44,269 nt of DNA from IMG/VR virus record IMGVR_UViG_3300029305_001256. The stretch is one strand, 5' to 3'. The notes beneath the pieces are model-generated. The model ran no database searches, had not been told where the DNA came from, and saw only the letters and a list, made by a program, of their open reading frames with translations. Source of the stretch: a virus. Positions 12,018-31,554 of the stretch are shown piece after piece (position 1 is the stretch's first letter; each line of letters begins with the position of its first letter). The position numbers were made by a program, and so were the translations under genes.

Positions 12018-12027
12018 GGGGGGGGGG
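12018..12027 (+). repeat. G10 homopolymer, intergenic, acting as the Shine-Dalgarno region of CDS 12037
   Basis: The sequence reads TAA GA GGGGGGGGGG TAAAGTGAT ATG. Confidence 0.9.
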
Positions 12028-23013: not shown

Positions 23014-23022
23014 GGGGGGGGG
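23014..23022 (+). repeat. G9 homopolymer, intergenic, acting as the Shine-Dalgarno region of CDS 23030
   Basis: The sequence reads TAA GGGGGGGGG TAAGATT ATG. Confidence 0.9.
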
Positions 23023-24635: not shown

Positions 24636-24951
24636 ATGCGTTTCAATGAGAACATCCCCCCCCCGTATGAGTGAGGCCCACAAAAGGGCCGAGGCTGAAA
24701 GCGCCGCCTGTGATATGTTGCTTGAGCTTATGCTTGAGAGCGATATGCCGGAGGAGCGTAAGGTTGGCCTGCACATTATGAAAGCAGCAAGAAACCTGCA
24801 CGAGGCTATCAGCAATATTGTTGGTGAGTATGCGGATCCCACCAAAGAGGTACCGTATGAAACCGCCAAGCAGGTTGCTGAATACCTCGGCCTGGTACAC
24901 ACAGGCATTATGCAATTTATGGAAACCCAAAACAACCAATGTACTGAATGA
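24636..24951 (+). pseudogene. Early gene interrupted at a C9 tract (frameshifted, or phase-variable OFF state)
   Basis: AGGAGG at 24621..24626 is followed by ATG 24636, which gives MRFNENIPPPYE-stop. The long ORF (..RMSEAHKRAEAES..., ending 24951) is one base out of frame. C8 or C11 would join the two. Confidence 0.6.
24656..24664 (+). repeat. C9 homopolymer at the frame break of gene 24636..24951
   Basis: Read directly. It lies in codons 8-10 after the RBS-served ATG. Confidence 0.9.
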
Positions 24952-25737: not shown

Positions 25738-27720
25738 ATGCACCACTTGAGCATTGACCTTGAAACATACTCAAGCGTGCCGATTGGAAAAGCCGGCGCC
25801 CAAAAGTACATTGCAAGCCCCGACTTTGAGATCCTGCTCTTTGCCTATTCCTTGGATGGCTCACCGGTTGTATGCGTGGACTTTGCCCAGGGTGAAATGC
25901 TACCGCAGGAAATTGCAAACGCATTGACCTCCCCGGACTACATAAAGCACGCATACAATGCTCCCTTTGAGTGGGGCTGCCTTTCCAAATATGTGGGCAG
26001 GCAGCTCCCACCGGAGCAATGGCGTTGCACAATGTTCCACGGCCTTTACGCTGGCTATACGGCGGGCCTGGAGGCCACAGGGCGGGCGTTAGGCCTTGCA
26101 GAGGATAAACGCAAGCTCAATACAGGTAAAGCCCTTATACGCTATTTCTGCGTGCCCTGTGCCCCCTCAAAGGCAAACGGTATGCGTACACGAAACTACC
26201 CCCACCATAACCCGGAGCGTTGGCAGTTATTCAAAGAGTATTGCTGCCAGGATGTTGTTACGGAAATGGAAATTGAGAGGCGGCTTTCAGCAATACCCGT
26301 ACCGGACTTTGTGCAAAAGGAATGGGAAACGGATCTCATTATCAACAGCCGAGGCGTGGCGGTTGATATGGAAATGGTTGAGGGTGCCCTGGAGCTCGGT
26401 GCTACGGTCCGCAACAGCCTTATGACAGAGGCAATGCAAATATCCGGGCTGAATAACCCCAACAGCGTAAAGCAGCTTGCTGCTTGGCTTGAGGAGGAAA
26501 CCGGTGAGGAGGTTGCCGCCCTGCGTAAGGACACCGTGGCAAAGATGCTTGCCCGTGATGATAACAGCCCCCAGGTACAGCGTATGCTTGAGATCCGGCA
26601 GGAGCTTGGCAAGACCAGTACCAAAAAATATGATGCCATTGAGGTGGCTGTGTGCCCGGATGGGCGTGTGCGTGGGCTTTTGCAGTTTTACGGAGCCAAC
26701 CGCACCGGCAGATGGGCAGGCCGTTTGGTGCAGGTGCAAAACCTGCCCCGCACCTATACGGAGCCCCTGGAGCTTGCCCGTGAATTGGTAAAGGGCCGAA
26801 ACCTTAACGCCCTCAAGGCCATTTACGGCAGCATCCCGGACACATTAAGCCAACTTATACGCACAGCCTTTATAGCACCGCCTGGGCACATACTCATTGA
26901 TGCTGACTTTTCAGCCATTGAGGCCCGTGTTATATCGTGGCTTGCCGGTGAGGAGTGGCGCCTTGAGGTTTTCCGCACCCACGGCAAAATATATGAGGCA
27001 TCTGCATCCCAAATGTTTGGCGTGCCCCTTGAGCTTATCAAAAAGGGCAACCCCGAATATGCCCTCCGACAAAAGGGCAAGGTTGCAGAGCTTGCACTCG
27101 GCTACCAAGGCAGTACCGGTGCACTTATCAATATGGGTGCTCTTGATATGGGCATCCCGGAGGAGGATCTGCCGGATATTGTTACCCGTTGGCGTGATGC
27201 CAACCGGCGCATAAGGGATCTGTGGTACAAAATGGATGCCGCCGCCGTGCAGATTATCACCCAGGGTGGAGCCGTTGGCGTAAACAATGTGGTTATTGCC
27301 CGTGAGTTTAACTACGAGCAAGGCACCGATTGTATGACCATAACGCTACCCTCCGGGCGTAAGCTCTATTACATTGAGCCCCAAATTGGCCAAAACCAAT
27401 GGGGCAGCCCCTCAATATCGTATATGGGTATGGACCAGACCACAAAGAAATGGAAACGCATAGAAACCTACGGCGGCAAGCTTGTGGAGAACTGTGTGCA
27501 AGCCATTGCCCGTGATTGTCTGGCACAGGCCATTGAGCACCTTGAGGCTGCCGGCCTGCCTGTTATATTCCACATACACGATGAGGTTGTTATTGATTGC
27601 CCGCCCAATGCCGCCACCCTGGAGGATGTGGTTAAGATCATTGCACAGCCCATACCCTGGGCTCCGGATCTGCCGCTGGGTGCGGATGGCTGGGTTGGCC
27701 AATTCTTTAAGAAAGATTAA
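25738..27720 (+). CDS. Family-A DNA polymerase with 3'-5' exonuclease domain
   Basis: A 660-aa ORF. The exonuclease motif is LSIDLETYS. The polymerase motifs are DFSAIEARV, QKGKVAELALGYQG and HIHDEVV. Confidence 0.85.
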   Translation: MHHLSIDLETYSSVPIGKAGAQKYIASPDFEILLFAYSLDGSPVVCVDFAQGEMLPQEIANALTSPDYIKHAYNAPFEWGCLSKYVGRQLPPEQWRCTMFHGLYAGYTAGLEATGRALGLAEDKRKLNTGKALIRYFCVPCAPSKANGMRTRNYPHHNPERWQLFKEYCCQDVVTEMEIERRLSAIPVPDFVQKEWETDLIINSRGVAVDMEMVEGALELGATVRNSLMTEAMQISGLNNPNSVKQLAAWLEEETGEEVAALRKDTVAKMLARDDNSPQVQRMLEIRQELGKTSTKKYDAIEVAVCPDGRVRGLLQFYGANRTGRWAGRLVQVQNLPRTYTEPLELARELVKGRNLNALKAIYGSIPDTLSQLIRTAFIAPPGHILIDADFSAIEARVISWLAGEEWRLEVFRTHGKIYEASASQMFGVPLELIKKGNPEYALRQKGKVAELALGYQGSTGALINMGALDMGIPEEDLPDIVTRWRDANRRIRDLWYKMDAAAVQIITQGGAVGVNNVVIAREFNYEQGTDCMTITLPSGRKLYYIEPQIGQNQWGSPSISYMGMDQTTKKWKRIETYGGKLVENCVQAIARDCLAQAIEHLEAAGLPVIFHIHDEVVIDCPPNAATLEDVVKIIAQPIPWAPDLPLGADGWVGQFFKKD

Positions 27721-27733
27721 AGGAGGATCGGCA

Positions 27734-28527
27734 ATGCAGTATATGGGCGGCAAAAGCCGTATTGCCCGCAGCATTGCTAACATAATCAATGAGGTACCAA
27801 GGTGGAAAATCAAGAATAGCAACACCGTTGGCACAGATCCTCAACTCTGCGGGGGGGGGCTTGCTTTGTTAGTCTTTTCTGCGGTAGCTGCTCCGTTGAG
27901 AGCAAAGTAACCGGTTATGACCGCATCATCCTAAACGATAAGCACGAGTATTTGATCTCAATGTTAAAGGGTGTACAGCAAGGTTATGAATTGCCGGAAA
28001 CCATAACGGAGGATCAGTACCAATATATACGAGCCAACAAGGATGCAGATCCCGTGCTCACAGGCTTTGTGGGTTTTGGGTGCAGCTTTGGTGGCAAGTG
28101 GTTTGGCGGTTACGCCAGGAATAAGGGCGGCACCAATTACGCAGCCCAAAGCAAAAGATCATTGCTTAAAGATATGGCCACGCTCGGCGGTGCAGAGTTT
28201 ATTTGTGGCGATTATCGCAAAGTACCGATACCGCCCGGAGCCGTTGTGTATGCGGATCCACCGTATGCAGACACCACGGGCTATAACGGTGAGAAATTTG
28301 ACAGCAAAGAGTTTTGGCGGGCAATGCGGTTGCTTGCTGATACCGGGCACACCGTTTACATAAGTGAGCAGACCGCCCCGCCAGACTTTGTATGCGTGTG
28401 GGAAAAGCCCTTTACCCGCACCCTCGACAGAAACAAGGGCAACCAATTTAAGGTAACAGAAAAGCTGTTTACCTATGTATCACCGCTTTACCAAGGAGGC
28501 GTACAAATTGATACCCTTACCAAATAA
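27734..28527 (+). pseudogene. Dam-like (D12-class) N6-adenine DNA methyltransferase split by a G9 tract
   Basis: The N-terminus MQYMGGKSRIA... is in frame 2 up to the tract. The continuation ...ACFVSLFCGSCSVESKV...VVYADPPY... is in frame 1, and G10 would join them. Confidence 0.75.
27851..27859 (+). repeat. G9 homopolymer at the frame break of the Dam-like gene
   Basis: Read directly. The context is CTGC-G9-CTTGC. Confidence 0.9.
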
Positions 28528-29065
28528 AAAATACAGCGTTATATACGCAGATCCACCCTGGGCTTATCAGCAAGGTGGCAGAGGTGCCGCCAAGCATCAT
28601 TACGATACGATGAGCACCGAGGCATTATGCAATATGCCCGTGCGGGATATTTGCACCGATGATGCCGTGCTCTTTATGTGGGCCACTTTCCCGAATTTGC
28701 CGGAGGCATTAAAGGTGATGGAGGCCTGGGGCTTTACCTACAAAACGGCAGCGTTTGTGTGGGTGAAACAAAACAAAAAGGCACCCACCTTGTTTATGGG
28801 TGGCGGCTCCTACACCAGGGCAAATGCGGAGGTTTGCCTGCTCGGTGTAAGCAAGAATACCAAGGCAAAAAGGTTTGTGGCATCACACAGCGTGCGGCAG
28901 ATCATTATAACACCGGTACGCCAGCACTCCCAAAAGCCCGCAGAGGCACGGGATCGCATCCGTGAACTCACGGGGGGGGATCACTCGTACATAGAGCTTT
29001 TTGCCCGAAATACCACACCCGGCTGGGATGTGTGGGGAAACGAGGTAAACAAATATGAAAACTAA
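28508..29065 (+). CDS. MT-A70-family N6-adenine DNA methyltransferase
   Basis: AAGGAGG lies 8 nt before the in-frame TTG 28508. The DPPW motif is present (YSVIYADPPWAYQ) and the family-typical C-terminus reads HSQKPAEARDRIREL. It contains an in-frame G8 tract. Confidence 0.8.
   Translation: MIPLPNKKYSVIYADPPWAYQQGGRGAAKHHYDTMSTEALCNMPVRDICTDDAVLFMWATFPNLPEALKVMEAWGFTYKTAAFVWVKQNKKAPTLFMGGGSYTRANAEVCLLGVSKNTKAKRFVASHSVRQIIITPVRQHSQKPAEARDRIRELTGGDHSYIELFARNTTPGWDVWGNEVNKYEN
28972..28979 (+). repeat. G8 homopolymer, in frame, inside the MT-A70 gene (encodes T-G-G-D)
   Basis: Read directly. The context is TCAC-G8-ATC. Confidence 0.9.
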
Positions 29066-29555
29066 AATATACATTGCCGGCAAGATTACCGGCGATCCGG
29101 AATATAAAGCAAAGTTTGATGCTGCGGCAGCAGAGTACAAAAAAAAGGGTTACACCGTGCTTAACCCCTCTTGGATGCCCCAGGGTATGCAGCCTGCCGA
29201 TTATATGCGTATTTGCTTTGCAATGATCGACACAGCGGATGTGGTTGCTTTTCTGCCTGGGTTTAGCAAGAGCCCCGGTGCAAGGCTGGAGGCAGAATAC
29301 TGTTTTTATACCGATAAAAGCACCATTATGCCGGATGGTGAAAGTTTGGAAACACCGAACTGCTCACAAAAAGAATTGACGGCATTAAAAGCGGTGTACT
29401 ACTTGGCCGAGAGAAACCCACGCCTGCGTATGGGTGGCACTTGGGTTGAGGATGTACACAATATGGAAACCTGCCAGCGGATCCCGTTTGTTGAGGCAAT
29501 GCGGCTTGTTGGTAATATGCTTTATTGCTCCGATGATGAGGAGGCAAGACCGTGA
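29055..29555 (+). CDS. DUF4406 / nucleoside-deoxyribosyltransferase-like protein
   Basis: The N-terminus MKTKIYIAGKITGDPEYKAKF... and the later ...VVAFLPGFSKSPGARLEAEY... are typical of that fold family. Confidence 0.6.
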   Translation: MKTKIYIAGKITGDPEYKAKFDAAAAEYKKKGYTVLNPSWMPQGMQPADYMRICFAMIDTADVVAFLPGFSKSPGARLEAEYCFYTDKSTIMPDGESLETPNCSQKELTALKAVYYLAERNPRLRMGGTWVEDVHNMETCQRIPFVEAMRLVGNMLYCSDDEEARP

Positions 29556-30153
29556 AACACTACGGCGATATAACAAAAATAAACGGAGCTGCTGTGGAGC
29601 CCGTCAATGTGATTATTGGCGGCAGCCCTTGCCAGGATCTTTCCGTTGCAGGTAAGCAAGCAGGCTTACAGGGTGAACGGTCCGGGCTCTTTATGGAGCA
29701 ACTGCGTGTGATAAAAGAAATGAGGAGGGCTGACAATGCCAGAGGTAGAACAGGAAAAGACACCCGCCCAAGGTATATGGTGTGGGAAAATGTGCCCGGA
29801 GCTTTCAGCTCCACAGGAGGAGCCGACTTTGCAGCCGTGCTCCAAGAAACCGCAAAAGTGGCCTGCGAACAAGCCCCCGCTGTTCCTATCCCTAAAAACG
29901 GATGGCCTCCAGCCGGATGCCTTACCGATGTGGGAGGACAATGGAGCATTGCGTGGAGAGTACTTGATGCACAGTTTTGGGGCGTGCCCCAAAGACGAAA
30001 ACGCATCGCACTTGTCGCAGATTTTGGAGGCCTCACCGCACCCGAAATACTCTTTGAGCGCCAAGGCGTGCCTGGGTATATTAAACCGTGCGGAACGGAG
30101 GGGCAAGGTGCTCCCGGAAATATTGAAACAAGCACTAATACAGCAAGCCCAAC

Positions 30154-30161
30154 GGGGGGGG
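30154..30161 (+). repeat. G8 homopolymer inside the C5-MTase locus
   Basis: The context is AAC-G8-CTTATTG. It is in frame for ORF 29552..30502, and it is also where the overlapping ORF 29736..30239 begins to run out. Confidence 0.9.
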
Positions 30162-30303
30162 CTTATTGCATACAAGGTAACTGCATCGACAGAGCAGACA
30201 CCGCAGGATGCAACGGCAAAGGATGGACCGAGGGAGTAAGCTACACCCTAAACACCATTGACCGCCCCGCTGTGCTCCCTTTTGTGCCAGCCCCTCAAGT
30301 AAC

Positions 30304-30310
30304 GGGGGGG
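30304..30310 (+). repeat. G7 homopolymer inside the C5-MTase locus
   Basis: The context is AAC-G7-CTTACATTG. Frame 1 is open from here into the next recognisable segment. Confidence 0.9.
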
Positions 30311-30618
30311 CTTACATTGACAGCTCACCCTTTCGATCCGGCACAGGTAACTGCCCCGTTACATCGCAACCCAATGACGAACACAGAGAAATGCCACACG
30401 CTGCACAGCCTGGATGCCCCGGCGATTGTATCATATTTGAGCCGGGATCCTGCACCCGTGTTGGCGGGCATATCTGGCAAGATGGAAAAACCCCGGCGTT
30501 AAGAGCCGATGCAGGCGATAACCGCCCCGCCATAGCCCTTGAGCACCACCCTAACGATAGCAGGGTGAAAATAGCCGAGGATGGAATTGTACAAACCCTC
30601 AATGCTCGTATGGGCACC

Positions 30619-30627
30619 GGGGGGGGG
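30619..30627 (+). repeat. G9 homopolymer inside the C5-MTase locus (encodes GGG of ARMGTGGGNVPLV)
   Basis: Read directly. It is in frame for ORF 30391..30666. Confidence 0.9.
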
Positions 30628-30826
30628 AATGTTCCACTCGTTATGTGCTCTACCAAAAGGCCATAGGCAGCCTATGTGCGAGGGATGCCAAAGGGATTGG
30701 CAACCAATATGTGCAGGAGGGCAAGTGCCTAATTATGGAGGTAACAAAATGATAATGTTTGAAAACTACCAATTTGCTAATTGGCGCCCCGGATGCGGAA
30801 CGCTAAAAGCAAGCGGTGGCGATTAC

Positions 30827-30835
30827 GGGGGGGGG
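30827..30835 (+). repeat. G9 homopolymer at a frame break of the C5-MTase locus
   Basis: ...TLKASGGDYGGG in frame 2 continues as SENLIVYEYWNGE... in frame 0. G8 would join them. Confidence 0.9.
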
Positions 30836-30908
30836 CTCGGAAAACTTGATTGTGTATGAATATTGGAACGGTGAGCCTGTGGTTGACACACTCACCGCAC
30901 GAAACGCT

Positions 30909-30917
30909 GGGGGGGGG
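30909..30917 (+). repeat. G9 homopolymer inside the C5-MTase locus (encodes GGG of ARNAGGGQRM)
   Basis: Read directly. It is in frame for ORF 30816..31352. Confidence 0.9.
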
Positions 30918-31344
30918 CAACGGATGCCGGATAAACAAAATTTTAACTGCGTTGTAGGAGCAGAGCAAAACCCTACTGAAACAAATTATATTGTACGCCG
31001 CCTTACACCGCTTGAATGTGAACGCCTGCAAGGTTTTCCGGATGGCTGGACCGATATAGGCGAATACACCGACAGCAAAGGTAAAGTACATAAAGAGTGT
31101 GCAGATAGTGCACGCTACAAGGCACTTGGCAACAGCATTGCCATACCGCCGTGGACTTATGTATTACAGCGGCTTTCTGTCTGCTGTGGTACGGAGGCAA
31201 CGATGGCCAGCTTATTTGATGGCATCGGCGGTTTTCCTCTTATCTGGGAACGCATTAACGGCAAAGGCTCTTGCCTTTGGGCAAGTGAAATTGAGGACTT
31301 TCCCATTGCCGTTACAAAATACCATTTTCCGGAGGAGGTACCCG

Positions 31345-31554
31345 ATGAGTAAAATACCTTACAGAAATAGTGAGGGCTACGCAGATCCCACGGCATACGC
31401 CGCCCTGGAGCCTATTGCCCAGGAGGAGGCAGCCCTTGAAAGCAAAGTAAACTTTTTAATAAAGGTGCTCAAATTCATTGCCAACGAGGCTGGGTTTGAT
31501 GTAACCAACCGCATTGAATTATGCGACAGAAAAACCGGCAGGGTTTTTAAGTAA
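31345..31554 (+). CDS. Small hypothetical protein upstream of the primase-helicase
   Basis: ATG 31345 overlaps the end of the MTase locus. The 69-aa product begins MSKIPYRNSEGYADPTAYAALEPI... Confidence 0.55.
   Translation: MSKIPYRNSEGYADPTAYAALEPIAQEEAALESKVNFLIKVLKFIANEAGFDVTNRIELCDRKTGRVFK

Follow-up and report, generated by a model that had tools for sequence, protein, structure and literature searches.

A probable natural family of phage C5-cytosine methyltransferases with a circular permutation between motifs II and III

Circular permutation of the C5-cytosine DNA methyltransferases (C5-MTases) is a textbook case with one natural prokaryotic topology, in which the break lies in the variable region. 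This single topology had been read as a sign that evolution preserves both structural domains. In the plant DRM-type enzymes, motifs VI to X come before motifs I to V, and the break is between V and VI. Multispecific phage C5-MTases of the SPR/phi3T type carry tandem target-recognition domains (TRDs), one for each specificity.

Albert et al. (PMC5944983, 2018, PLoS One) gave the name "Type B" to permutants that start between motifs II and III; these engineers reported the type absent from nature. Among their M.MpeI/M.SssI permutants, this break gave the highest activity of the ten permitted topologies, about that of the wild type; they speculated that it might weaken AdoMet binding in vivo (PMC5944983). 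Our literature search for II/III permutations in nature and for overlapping ORFs in the C5-MTase genes of phages returned only that paper and the EcoHK31I case described below.

The DNA analyzed here, called the window, is a viral stretch of 44,269 nucleotides (IMG/VR record IMGVR_UViG_3300029305_001256). An earlier note on its sequence had described a permuted C5-MTase at 29552-31352 and had stated that the known permuted enzymes break elsewhere, which agrees with the literature.

Motif order and break point of the window gene

The start at GTG 29552 and its GAGGAGG ribosome-binding site were as the earlier note described, and the in-frame stop 12 nt upstream is TGA 29537-39. The stop of the upstream DUF4406 gene (29553-55) overlaps the start. 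The parts of the locus are as follows.

29538..29544 (+): ribosome-binding site GAGGAGG, 7 nt 5' of GTG 29552
29552..30502 (+): segment A, frame 2, a 316-aa ORF that begins at motif III and holds motifs III, IV, VI and VIII, a linker and the first TRD-like modules
29555-78 (+): motif III, KHYGDITK
29618-44 (+): motif IV, GGSPCQ (PCQ)
29783-800 (+): motif VI, WENVPG (ENV)
29981-30016 (+): motif VIII, GVPQRRKR (QRRKR)
30161-226 (+): TRD-like module AYCIQGN.., segment A
30236-74 (+): TRD-like module VSYTLNTIDRPAV, segment A
30389-430 (+): TRD-like module KCHTLHSLDAPAIV, segment A
30433..30666 (+): segment B, frame 1, with IFEPGSC.., KTPALRADAGDNRPAIA and IVQTLNARMGTGGGNVPLV
30648..30752 (+): segment C, frame 0, LYQKAIGSLCARDAKGIGNQYV..CLIMEVTK, ending TGA TAA (TGA 30750-52)
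30749..30835 (+): segment D, frame 2, MIMFENYQF..CGTLKASGGDYGGG
30816..31352 (+): segment E, frame 0, a 178-aa ORF with the last TRD-like module, motifs IX and X, a linker, motifs I and II and the stop
30879-929 (+): last TRD-like module, VVDTLTARNAGGGQRMP, segment E
30996-31049 (+): motif IX, segment E
31113-48 (+): motif X, segment E
31164-202 (+): X-to-I linker, LQRLSVCCGTEAT
31203-41 (+): motif I, MASLFDGIGG, MASLFDGIGGFPL, segment E
to 31352 (+): motif II, ASEIE..AVTKYHFPEEVPDE-stop, with ..WASEIEDFPIAVTKYHFPEEVPDE at 31275-349, segment E

The catalytic and cofactor motifs of a C5-MTase were all present (FDGIGG, ASEIE, SPCQ, ENVPG, QRRKR, RRLTPLECERLQGFPDGW and GNSIA), each where the earlier note had placed it, and the permuted order that it had read, III-IV-VI-VIII-variable region-IX-X-I-II, was confirmed. 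This is not the canonical linear order from I to X. It is not that of Type H/J, because III is N-terminal and IX and X come after both VIII and the variable region, and it is not the DRM-type order, because no break separates IV from VI in the first ORF. The rearrangement is unit-length, with the start at III and I-II after X in the same chain, as in Type B. From the translations, seven repeated modules of the type xxTLxAxxxGGxxxPxV could be read in the variable region.

Profile searches gave the split, out-of-order match to PF00145 that had been proposed as a check. With a cut-off of 22 bits, the first ORF matched profile positions 46-130 through aa 3-100 (77.7 bits), and the last ORF matched positions 258-321 through aa 40-119 (47.8 bits). 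The C-terminal 49-aa tail (segment E aa 128-175) corresponds to positions 1-46 of TIGR00675, in which the split is 1-46/48-132, and to positions 54-99 of phrog_363; segment A starts at phrog_363 position 100 and covers 100-227. Segment E was matched as a single stretch (49-175) by phrog_16427, and the intact relative P0241 (the MT836154 ORF) scored 107.3 bits with TIGR00675 (cut-off, 100.65). In canonical relatives, the sequence that spans the break point is ..FPIKVTKHHFPNV|KHLGDITKINGAEVEPV.., and their junction ..HFPNV|KHLGDITKING.. corresponds to the C-terminal plus N-terminal ends of the window protein. Both the profile coordinates and this comparison put the break exactly at the II/III junction, as the earlier note had it. 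The results support the prediction that the window gene is a C5-cytosine DNA methyltransferase gene circularly permuted at that junction.

Distribution and conservation of the permuted order

A look at related phages, also proposed earlier, found the permuted order in the isolated Faecalibacterium phages Toutatis and Lelie. Of the 120 best full-length proteins in the database, 113 had the order III-IV-VI-VIII-IX-X-I-II; these begin MKHLGDIT and finish ..FPIAVTKRRFGEE. Motifs IX-X-I-II fell in one C-terminal stretch in 150/150 of the top 50%-identity cluster representatives, and 743 of the cluster representatives scored E<=1e-30. About 33 Clostridia genomes, mostly Oscillospirales, carry the permuted gene, and a 129-kb contig of an Oscillospiraceae MAG has a junction that matches the window's at 100% identity. 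Loci L008, L009, L010 and L098 (604 aa) each have an intact single ORF, with lengths of 453-604 aa. Cluster look-ups returned generic names, e.g., "DNA (cytosine-5)-methyltransferase 1," and a megablast search of phage records with the locus gave no match.

The interval from X to I was stop-free in 86 loci, and its spacing was 87 nt in 80 of them. Codon-position entropies in the I-II segment were 0.75/0.66/1.52, the third position having twice the value of positions 1 and 2. This pattern indicates that the X-linker-I-II fusion is real: in frame, conserved and under purifying selection. The earlier note had named two ways in which its reading might fail. The first, a canonical I-II segment upstream, is absent, and the DUF4406 gene abuts the start. 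The second, that the I-II segment is a separately translated remnant, fails because the Met ahead of it is replaced by Leu in 34/86 loci (LGSL).

In a neighbor-joining tree, 43 of 50 permuted sequences formed one clade; because 7/50 fell outside this main clade, a single origin is not proven. A genomic context shared by permuted and canonical genes (DUF4406/small ORF/VapE primase) was considered and rejected; the context is not conserved and thus gives no evidence on origin. Most likely, duplication, fusion and truncation gave rise to the family on one or only a few occasions. The data are consistent with a duplication-and-truncation route, in that a former start Met and a former C-terminal tail appear to be kept in the linker.

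The carrier is a ~44-kb temperate phage (prophage) of an Oscillospiraceae gut bacterium. In the protein layout (III-IV-VI-VIII-multi-module variable region-IX-X-~20-aa linker-I-II), the canonical N-terminal ~47 to 50 residues, with the FxGxG loop of motif I and the acidic strand of motif II, are encoded after motif X. The moved segment corresponds to beta1-alphaA-beta2 of the AdoMet-binding Rossmann half. The permuted chain probably folds into the ordinary class-I methyltransferase fold: the N- and C-termini are close in canonical C5 enzymes, so the former C-terminal tail could act as a linker, and the new termini would fall in a tolerant II-III surface loop. AlphaFold2 modeled the intact member P0241 poorly, with a mean pLDDT of 42 and a pTM of 0.35 from a shallow 44-sequence alignment, and the model did not resolve docking of the I-II segment. 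The TRD-like modules may let intact members methylate phage DNA, possibly at several targets, and so evade host restriction.

Frame breaks, homopolymer tracts and an overlapping ORF

The span 29552-31352 is not one ORF in the window; the locus falls into five frame segments. The "same ORF" of the earlier note holds for IX-X-I-II, which are contiguous in 30816..31352, and applies to this last ORF only, not to the whole locus. The four frame breaks are three 1-nt deletions common to all near-identical contigs plus one private extra G. The A-to-B break at ~30431 is a 1-nt deletion outside any homopolymer, needs a -1 shift, and is also present in L012, L013 and L014; the B-to-C break at ~30646 is a second 1-nt deletion. 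The C/D break is an A5-to-A4 deletion relative to continuous relatives (P0003, P0047 and P0008) and creates a stop/start overlap, in which ATG 30749 of segment D overlaps the segment C stop (AAATGA) and is preceded by GGAGGT. The D-to-E break is at the G9 tract at 30827-35, after which frame 0 resumes. With the G8 found there in at least three near-identical contigs, D is in frame with E (208-aa ORF, P0003), and the extra G at 30827 is the sole difference between the window and L012 over 20.6 kb. The same breaks were seen in the independent assemblies L012 to L014. Because the window copy is frame-disrupted, the enzyme cannot be made from it as one chain; most likely the copy has been inactivated or, less likely, split. 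Frame breaks were found in 27/54 complete permuted loci, which could reflect frequent decay.

The G tracts of the locus are these.

30154..30161 (+): G8 tract in the gene, encoding Gly-Gly(-Gly) of a TRD-like module
30304-10 (+): G7 tract, encoding Gly-Gly(-Gly) of a TRD-like module
30619-27 (+): G9 tract, encoding Gly-Gly(-Gly) of a TRD-like module
30827..30835 (+): G9 tract, G8 in at least three near-identical contigs
30909-17 (+): G9 tract, encoding Gly-Gly(-Gly) of a TRD-like module

Tracts of at least 8 number 4 in the 1.8-kb locus and 10 in the whole window versus ~1 expected for the window. This ten-fold excess would fit phase variation, a possible but doubtful alternative in which the frame breaks are a reversible OFF state and poly-G slippage turns the enzyme, or the recognition modules that it carries, on and off. 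The sole indel differences between near-identical genomes are also at tracts (G9/G8 at 30827, G8/G9 at 28972 and C9/C8 at 24656), the same site is G9 in Toutatis and G14 in Lelie, and a G/C tract of at least 7 is present in 24/27 broken loci versus 13/27 intact ones. However, homopolymer length differences may be assembly or sequencing errors, and two of the window's four breaks are fixed in every copy at sites outside G/C tracts. Thus, the window copy cannot revert by slippage alone.

An active split methyltransferase, assembled noncovalently from the 316-aa segment A (III to VIII and its modules) and from the last ORF, is unlikely. Its second half would be a TRD module-IX-X-I-II chain, 208 aa with G8, whose own GGAGG-ATG overlaps the preceding stop. 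The ATGA stop/start overlap with a ribosome-binding site at 30749 suggests translational coupling, and M.AquI and M.EcoHK31I are naturally split C5-MTases. Fragments of cp62M.MpeI with the same topology (residues 62-279 plus 280-61) complement each other in vivo (PMC5944983). Against this, modules B and C are untranslatable or orphaned through the frameshifts at ~30431 and ~30646, the window's G9 shortens the last ORF to 178 aa with loss of the start linked to the ribosome-binding site, and among relatives the breaks are scattered and no two-ORF architecture is conserved.

Short GGAGG-containing repeats at all three junctions and the GGAGGCAACG-ATG of the window's I-II segment would suit an assembly error, or 31203-31352 as the remnant of a second, truncated methyltransferase gene, but we consider such readings refuted, with a negligible chance of being right: the order recurs in isolated phages with completely sequenced genomes, as it does in hundreds of independent assemblies; motif I always follows X in frame with no intervening stop; the Met lacks conservation; and selection acts in that frame. 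The explanation that we hold with high confidence is a natural phage family of C5-MTases with Type B order, of which the window copy is most likely an inactivated member.

A further ORF overlaps segment A.

29736..30239 (+): overlapping ORF "ALT," +1 frame, 167 aa, with its own GAGGAGG-N7-ATG
30009-30137 (+): its conserved C-terminal module, HLSQILE..KYSLSAKACLGILNRAERRGKVLPEILKQAL

When loci were compared, its Shine-Dalgarno (SD)+ATG start was found, the wobble phase switched to the +1 frame in 45 and 42 diverse loci, and stops were avoided in that frame (P~1e-26). These signatures indicate that the overlapping ORF is under purifying selection across phage C5-MTase genes, permuted and canonical, including P1 dmt. 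Its conserved ATG is upstream of the ENV codons; an ATG inside these codons was rejected as the start since it is not conserved (Asn is encoded by AAC in 20 loci and by AAT in 14). AlphaFold2 modeled the module as helical (pLDDT, 85 to 96). Foldseek with this model found no match in the PDB with E<1, a PDB sequence-profile search gave no hit at E<=10, and no family was found in Pfam, NCBIfam or PHROGs. That LSxIL..KYxLS is the usual variable-region start of ordinary C5-MTases was dropped, given no Foldseek, PDB-profile or family match. A clean two-ORF layout with the overlapping ORF fused to TRD-IX-X was also rejected, having been seen only in the isolated frameshifted contigs L007 and L095. 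In Toutatis, gp14 is the N-terminal methyltransferase half fused to the overlapping-ORF module. In P1, the +1-frame ORF within dmt would encode the peptide LSQVLEQTSIPQR...

We lean slightly toward a joint reading, a second, separately initiated +1-frame gene together with a choice made by tract length. The gene would have ~135 to 160 codons, its SD+ATG arising from the codons that follow the conserved KEMR motif. It would overprint motifs VI to VIII as a disordered stretch and end in a ~45-residue helical module (LSQILE..KYxLSxKACxGILxRAxxRGKxLPxxLxxAL) that appears more conserved than the methyltransferase frame it overlaps. The product would be a so far unrecognised protein that partners or regulates the methyltransferase. 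The length of the poly-G between VI and VIII would pick the full-length enzyme, the N-terminal half plus module, or a truncated product.

Comparison with known systems

Judged from sequence, this is a large natural family of Type B C5-MTases, so far unremarked. Engineers found the II/III break best and asked why nature was without it; phages of gut Clostridia use it abundantly. The family offers hundreds of natural sequences for tests of cofactor affinity, folding and fragment complementation, which may be useful for split-methyltransferase epigenome tools. The genes are often called as fragments, and a C-terminal I-II may confuse annotation that looks for motif I at the N-terminus. The variable poly-G tracts and the conserved overlapping ORF suggest that anti-restriction methylation in phages is regulated in ways yet to be explored.

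Canonical phage "orphan" C5-MTases (PHROG 363/116), e.g., Javan105 QBX13763 (Streptococcus phage), the C5 domain of P1 Dmt and Akkermansia phage Chantilly, share with the window family ..WASEIE.FPI.VT.., KHLGDI, GSPCQD, WENVPGAFSS, WGVPQRRRR, RRLTP.ECERLQGFPD and GNS.A, as well as the TRD-like modules and the +1 overlapping ORF after motif VIII; they differ in having motifs I-II at the N-terminus. M.EcoHK31I (alpha/beta) and M.AquI are precedents for C5-MTases of two polypeptides. In EcoHK31I, the second polypeptide is encoded within the first gene, in an alternative frame (PMC2836561); this beta chain supplies motif IX, whereas the overlapping ORF in the window family has no methyltransferase motif.

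Enzymes of the M.BssHII type (M.Alw26I, M2.Eco31I, M.Esp3I and M2.BsaI, among others; Type H/J) are also permuted, presumably via duplication and truncation. Their break is in the variable region (IX-X-I-VIII) and leaves both structural domains intact, whereas that of the window family falls between beta2 and beta3 and interrupts the AdoMet-binding half of the large domain. The engineered permutants of M.MpeI/M.SssI and, by directed evolution, M.HaeIII are alike in having a II/III N-terminus and I-II after X via a linker, and engineered permutants cut between VIII and the TRD yield fragments that complement one another. Those are laboratory enzymes, mono-specific for CG or GGCC, whereas the window family is natural and abundant and has a long multi-module variable region.

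Motif order and break point of the permuted methyltransferase

The earlier note read a permuted C5-cytosine methyltransferase beginning at GTG 29552, and the window sequence agrees with that start: a ribosome-binding site (RBS)-like GAGGAGG precedes it, an in-frame TGA lies 12 nt upstream, and the preceding gene (DUF4406) has a stop codon that overlaps it.

29538-44, + strand, GAGGAGG, 7 nt before GTG 29552
29552..30502, + strand, first ORF, 316 aa, frame 2
30816..31352, + strand, last ORF, frame 0, closing at a stop

The first ORF carries KHYGDITK (conserved motif III), GGSPCQ (IV), WENVPG (VI), and GVPQRRKR (VIII). Encoded in the last ORF are RRLTPLECERLQGFPDGW (IX), GNSIAIP (X), then a linker of 13 aa, MASLFDGIGGFPL (I), and WASEIEDFPIAVTKYHFPEEVPDE (II), followed by the stop. 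A profile search gave the split, out-of-order PF00145 match that had been predicted, with the first ORF at positions 46-130 and the last at positions 258-321. The 49-aa C-terminal tail matched TIGR00675 positions 1-46; in the canonical phage family phrog_363, the tail corresponds to positions 54-99 and the first ORF begins at position 100. Across the break, a canonical relative reads ..FPIKVTKHHFPNV followed by KHLGDITKINGAEVEPV... Therefore, the permutation is unit-length and the break falls between motifs II and III. The proposed motif order and break point are confirmed, but the proposed single continuous ORF is not: in 29552-31352, the homologous coding sequence runs through several frames.

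The same arrangement recurs across phages, metagenome-assembled genomes (MAGs), and isolates; it is not an artifact, and the permutation is supported at the family level. With tblastn of phage records, IX-X-I-II appeared as an uninterrupted stretch in about eight human-gut phage contigs as well as in Faecalibacterium phages FP_Toutatis and Lelie; their permuted genes begin MIHLGDITK and finish ..GSLFDGIGGFPL..WASEIEEFPIAVTKRWF... Unbroken permuted ORFs are present in MT835513, MT836154, and MT836051, and one of 604 aa in an Oscillospiraceae MAG. When one intact permuted ORF was used as the query, a protein search returned 8000 proteins; among the best 120, the order III-IV-VI-VIII-IX-X-I-II was present in 113, the start MKHLGDIT in 112, and the end ..AVTKRRFGEE in nearly all. 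When 1.84 billion cluster representatives were searched exhaustively with HMMER, 743 matched at E≤1e-30, and among the matches listed, IX-X-I-II was a single stretch reaching the C terminus in 150/150. Neighbor joining on the III-VIII region groups 43 of 50 permuted sequences with a single canonical sequence in one clade, which would fit a single origin or a small number of them. The hosts are mostly Oscillospirales and other Clostridia, and isolates with the gene include Acutalibacter sp. 1XD8-33 and Gemmiger sp. An87. One permuted protein of 734 aa has an intein-like insertion of ∼350 aa exactly at the catalytic Pro-Cys (GGSPC, then FPAGTLVLT...VVHN, then CQNMS).

We also examined the junction in 86 fetched loci. 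Motifs X and I are in the same frame with zero stops between them, their spacing is 87 nt in 80 loci, and the ORF usually ends 38 to 48 codons past motif I. Variability in the I-II segment is 0.75/0.66/1.52 bits at codon positions 1/2/3; the third position is twice as variable as the others, a mark of purifying selection in this frame. Immediately before ASLFDG/GSLFDG, 52 loci have Met and 34 have Leu. Because Met is replaced by Leu in the latter, the segment is not a separately started remnant but part of the same protein, as originally proposed.

The window junction is 100% identical to one within a 129-kb Oscillospiraceae MAG contig, which indicates a temperate phage or prophage, as do the neighboring genes (portal, tape measure, serine recombinase, family-A polymerase, and VapE primase). 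The window sequence lies inside this contig and also inside one of 88.5 kb, and its length of 44,269 nt agrees with that of contigs of 44,283-44,290 bp coding for the same protein. The window probably represents the entire genome of a temperate phage whose host belongs to the Oscillospiraceae.

Frame changes and G/C tracts

The homologous coding sequence in the window is interrupted as follows.

∼30431, + strand, frame 2 to frame 1
∼30646, + strand, frame 1 to frame 0
30750-52, + strand, TGA stop overlapping an RBS-preceded ATG (30749) in frame 2
30827-35, + strand, G9 tract, shift to frame 0

The breaks at ∼30431, ∼30646, and 30749 are common to the window and three independent JGI contigs (L012-L014). 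At 30827, these contigs have G8 versus G9 in the window, and with G8 the final two segments form a single 208-aa ORF. That one G is the sole difference between L012 and the window over 20.6 kb. L013, compared over 16.7 kb, has 4 substitutions and 3 indels relative to the window, and the indels (24656, 28972, and 30827) are all in G/C tracts. Ten G/C runs of 8 or more occur in the window versus ∼1 expected, and four are inside the methyltransferase gene.

24656-24664, C9 tract, one base different in L013
∼27701-27910 and 27952-28527, ORFs of a D12/Dam-like methyltransferase gene split at a G9 tract
28972-28979, G8 tract in the MT-A70 gene, one base different in L013
L001:3299-3307, G9 between VI and VIII in Toutatis
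L002:3294-3307, G14 between VI and VIII in Lelie

The upstream D12/Dam-like gene is split at G9 27851-59, inside its ..LCGGGA.. cofactor-binding motif, and its N-terminal part (MQYMGGKSRIA..) and DPPY-containing part are in different frames. The MT-A70 product is 194 aa in L013 versus 196 aa in the window. Toutatis and Lelie are otherwise nearly identical, and neither tract restores the full-length frame: G9 puts III-VI in frame with the C-terminal module of an overlapping ORF (annotated gp14; see below), and G14 leads to an early stop. Half of the 54 complete permuted loci (27) are intact and the other 27 broken, the breaks lying in the variable region in 15 and in the VI-VIII interval in 8. 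Tracts of 7 or more are commoner in broken (24/27) than in intact (13/27) loci. This excess and the Toutatis/Lelie difference fit phase variation by poly-G length, although homopolymer length differences may be sequencing errors.

Two long tracts, 12018-12027 (G10) and 23014-23022 (G9), lie immediately 5′ of start codons (..AAGGGGGGGGGTAAGATTATG) and appear to be or to overlap ribosome-binding sites; a change in tract length could therefore modulate translation. Between a small ORF (31345-31554) and the VapE-like primase gene, C8 31556-31563 followed by GTGGGGTGGGCGG forms a C8/G-rich inverted repeat, possibly a terminator or a further variable tract.

Because the frameshifts are fixed in the window lineage, gene inactivation is suggested, and the window copy is probably nonfunctional. 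A split enzyme is conceivable, since the cp62M.MpeI fragments [62-279] and [280-61] complement each other, but is less likely than inactivation.

An ORF overlapping motif VIII in the +1 frame

29736-30239, + strand, overlapping ORF, +1 frame, over and past motif VIII

This ORF encodes ..HLSQILEASPHPKYSLSAKACLGILNRAERRGKVLPEILKQAL.. and ends in a helical module, LSQILE..KYxLSxKACxGILxRAxxRGKxLP. It is found in the window, L003, L004, L005 (P1 dmt), L006, and L015-L175, in permuted and canonical phage C5 methyltransferase genes alike; canonical examples are in Streptococcus phage Javan105, Akkermansia phage Chantilly, P1 (dmt), and a mycobacteriophage. The annotated frame never contains this peptide, and motif VIII is always 64 nt upstream in the −1 frame. 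Over ∼90 nt, conservation of the module exceeds that of the underlying methyltransferase frame: across 45 diverse loci, identity in the 90 nt past the motif start was 0.82/0.66/0.52 in the +1 frame versus 0.38/0.26/0.21 in the methyltransferase frame, and the most variable codon position switches there to match the +1 frame. The switch was repeated in an unbiased set of 42 loci picked solely by methyltransferase-frame motifs, in which AC.G[IV]L lies at exactly +76 nt in the +1 frame in 35/42 and in the main frame in 0/42. Upstream, the +1 frame is open for 71 to 144 codons in 34/34 loci; with synonymous resampling, 8% would be expected to reach 100 open codons, and for all 34 to remain open over 48 codons or more, the joint probability is ∼1e-26.

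The start is an ATG a few codons 3′ of a conserved KEMR motif, whose codons, GA(A/G)ATGAGG, provide an upstream +1-frame TGA plus a Shine-Dalgarno-like GAGG; a Shine-Dalgarno-like motif is present in 24/34 loci. Gene callers occasionally predict the ORF as an orphan protein of 75 to 160 aa. AF2 predicts residues 1-90 to be disordered and ∼100-140 to be a confident helical module, and searches for structural and sequence relatives found none. The ORF is likely translated; we would guess that its product is a partner or regulator. M.EcoHK31I offers the nearest precedent: its beta chain is encoded in an alternative frame within the alpha gene.

A 237-aa deletion variant combines the overlapping ORF's N-terminal part (..GEYLMHSFGVCPKDEN) with KTPCLSAG..IX-X-I-II in a single frame; recombination between short, similar stretches that lie in different frames apparently produced this fusion. 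The homologous methylase of Mycobacterium phage Schatzie (L006, 827-2350), annotated [quoted passage not shown] has an embedded HNH endonuclease ORF and also the conserved +1 peptide.

Comparison with known permuted enzymes

Albert et al. (2018; PMC5944983) reviewed the natural permuted C5 methyltransferases M.BssHII, M.Alw26I, M2.Eco31I, M.Esp3I, and M2.BsaI, plus 22 from REBASE, and in every one the permutation site is in the variable region. Their engineered "Type B" permutants, with the N terminus between II and III, had the highest activity, similar to the wild-type level (PMC5944983). Our literature search found no later description of a natural II/III permutation; database entries for the permuted family members carry generic names only, and phrog_16427 appears to contain the C-terminal ORF, without comment on permutation. 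By analogy with the engineered enzymes, the permuted chain would keep the ordinary methyltransferase fold, the old C-terminal tail would act as the linker between X and I, and the new termini would fall in the II-III loop; the AF2 model was too poor to support this mechanism. Among natural enzymes, the II/III break is a new permutation topology of a well-known enzyme: natural M.BssHII-type enzymes are broken in the variable region, whereas the window family is broken at II/III, with its N terminus placed as in the engineered Type B enzymes.
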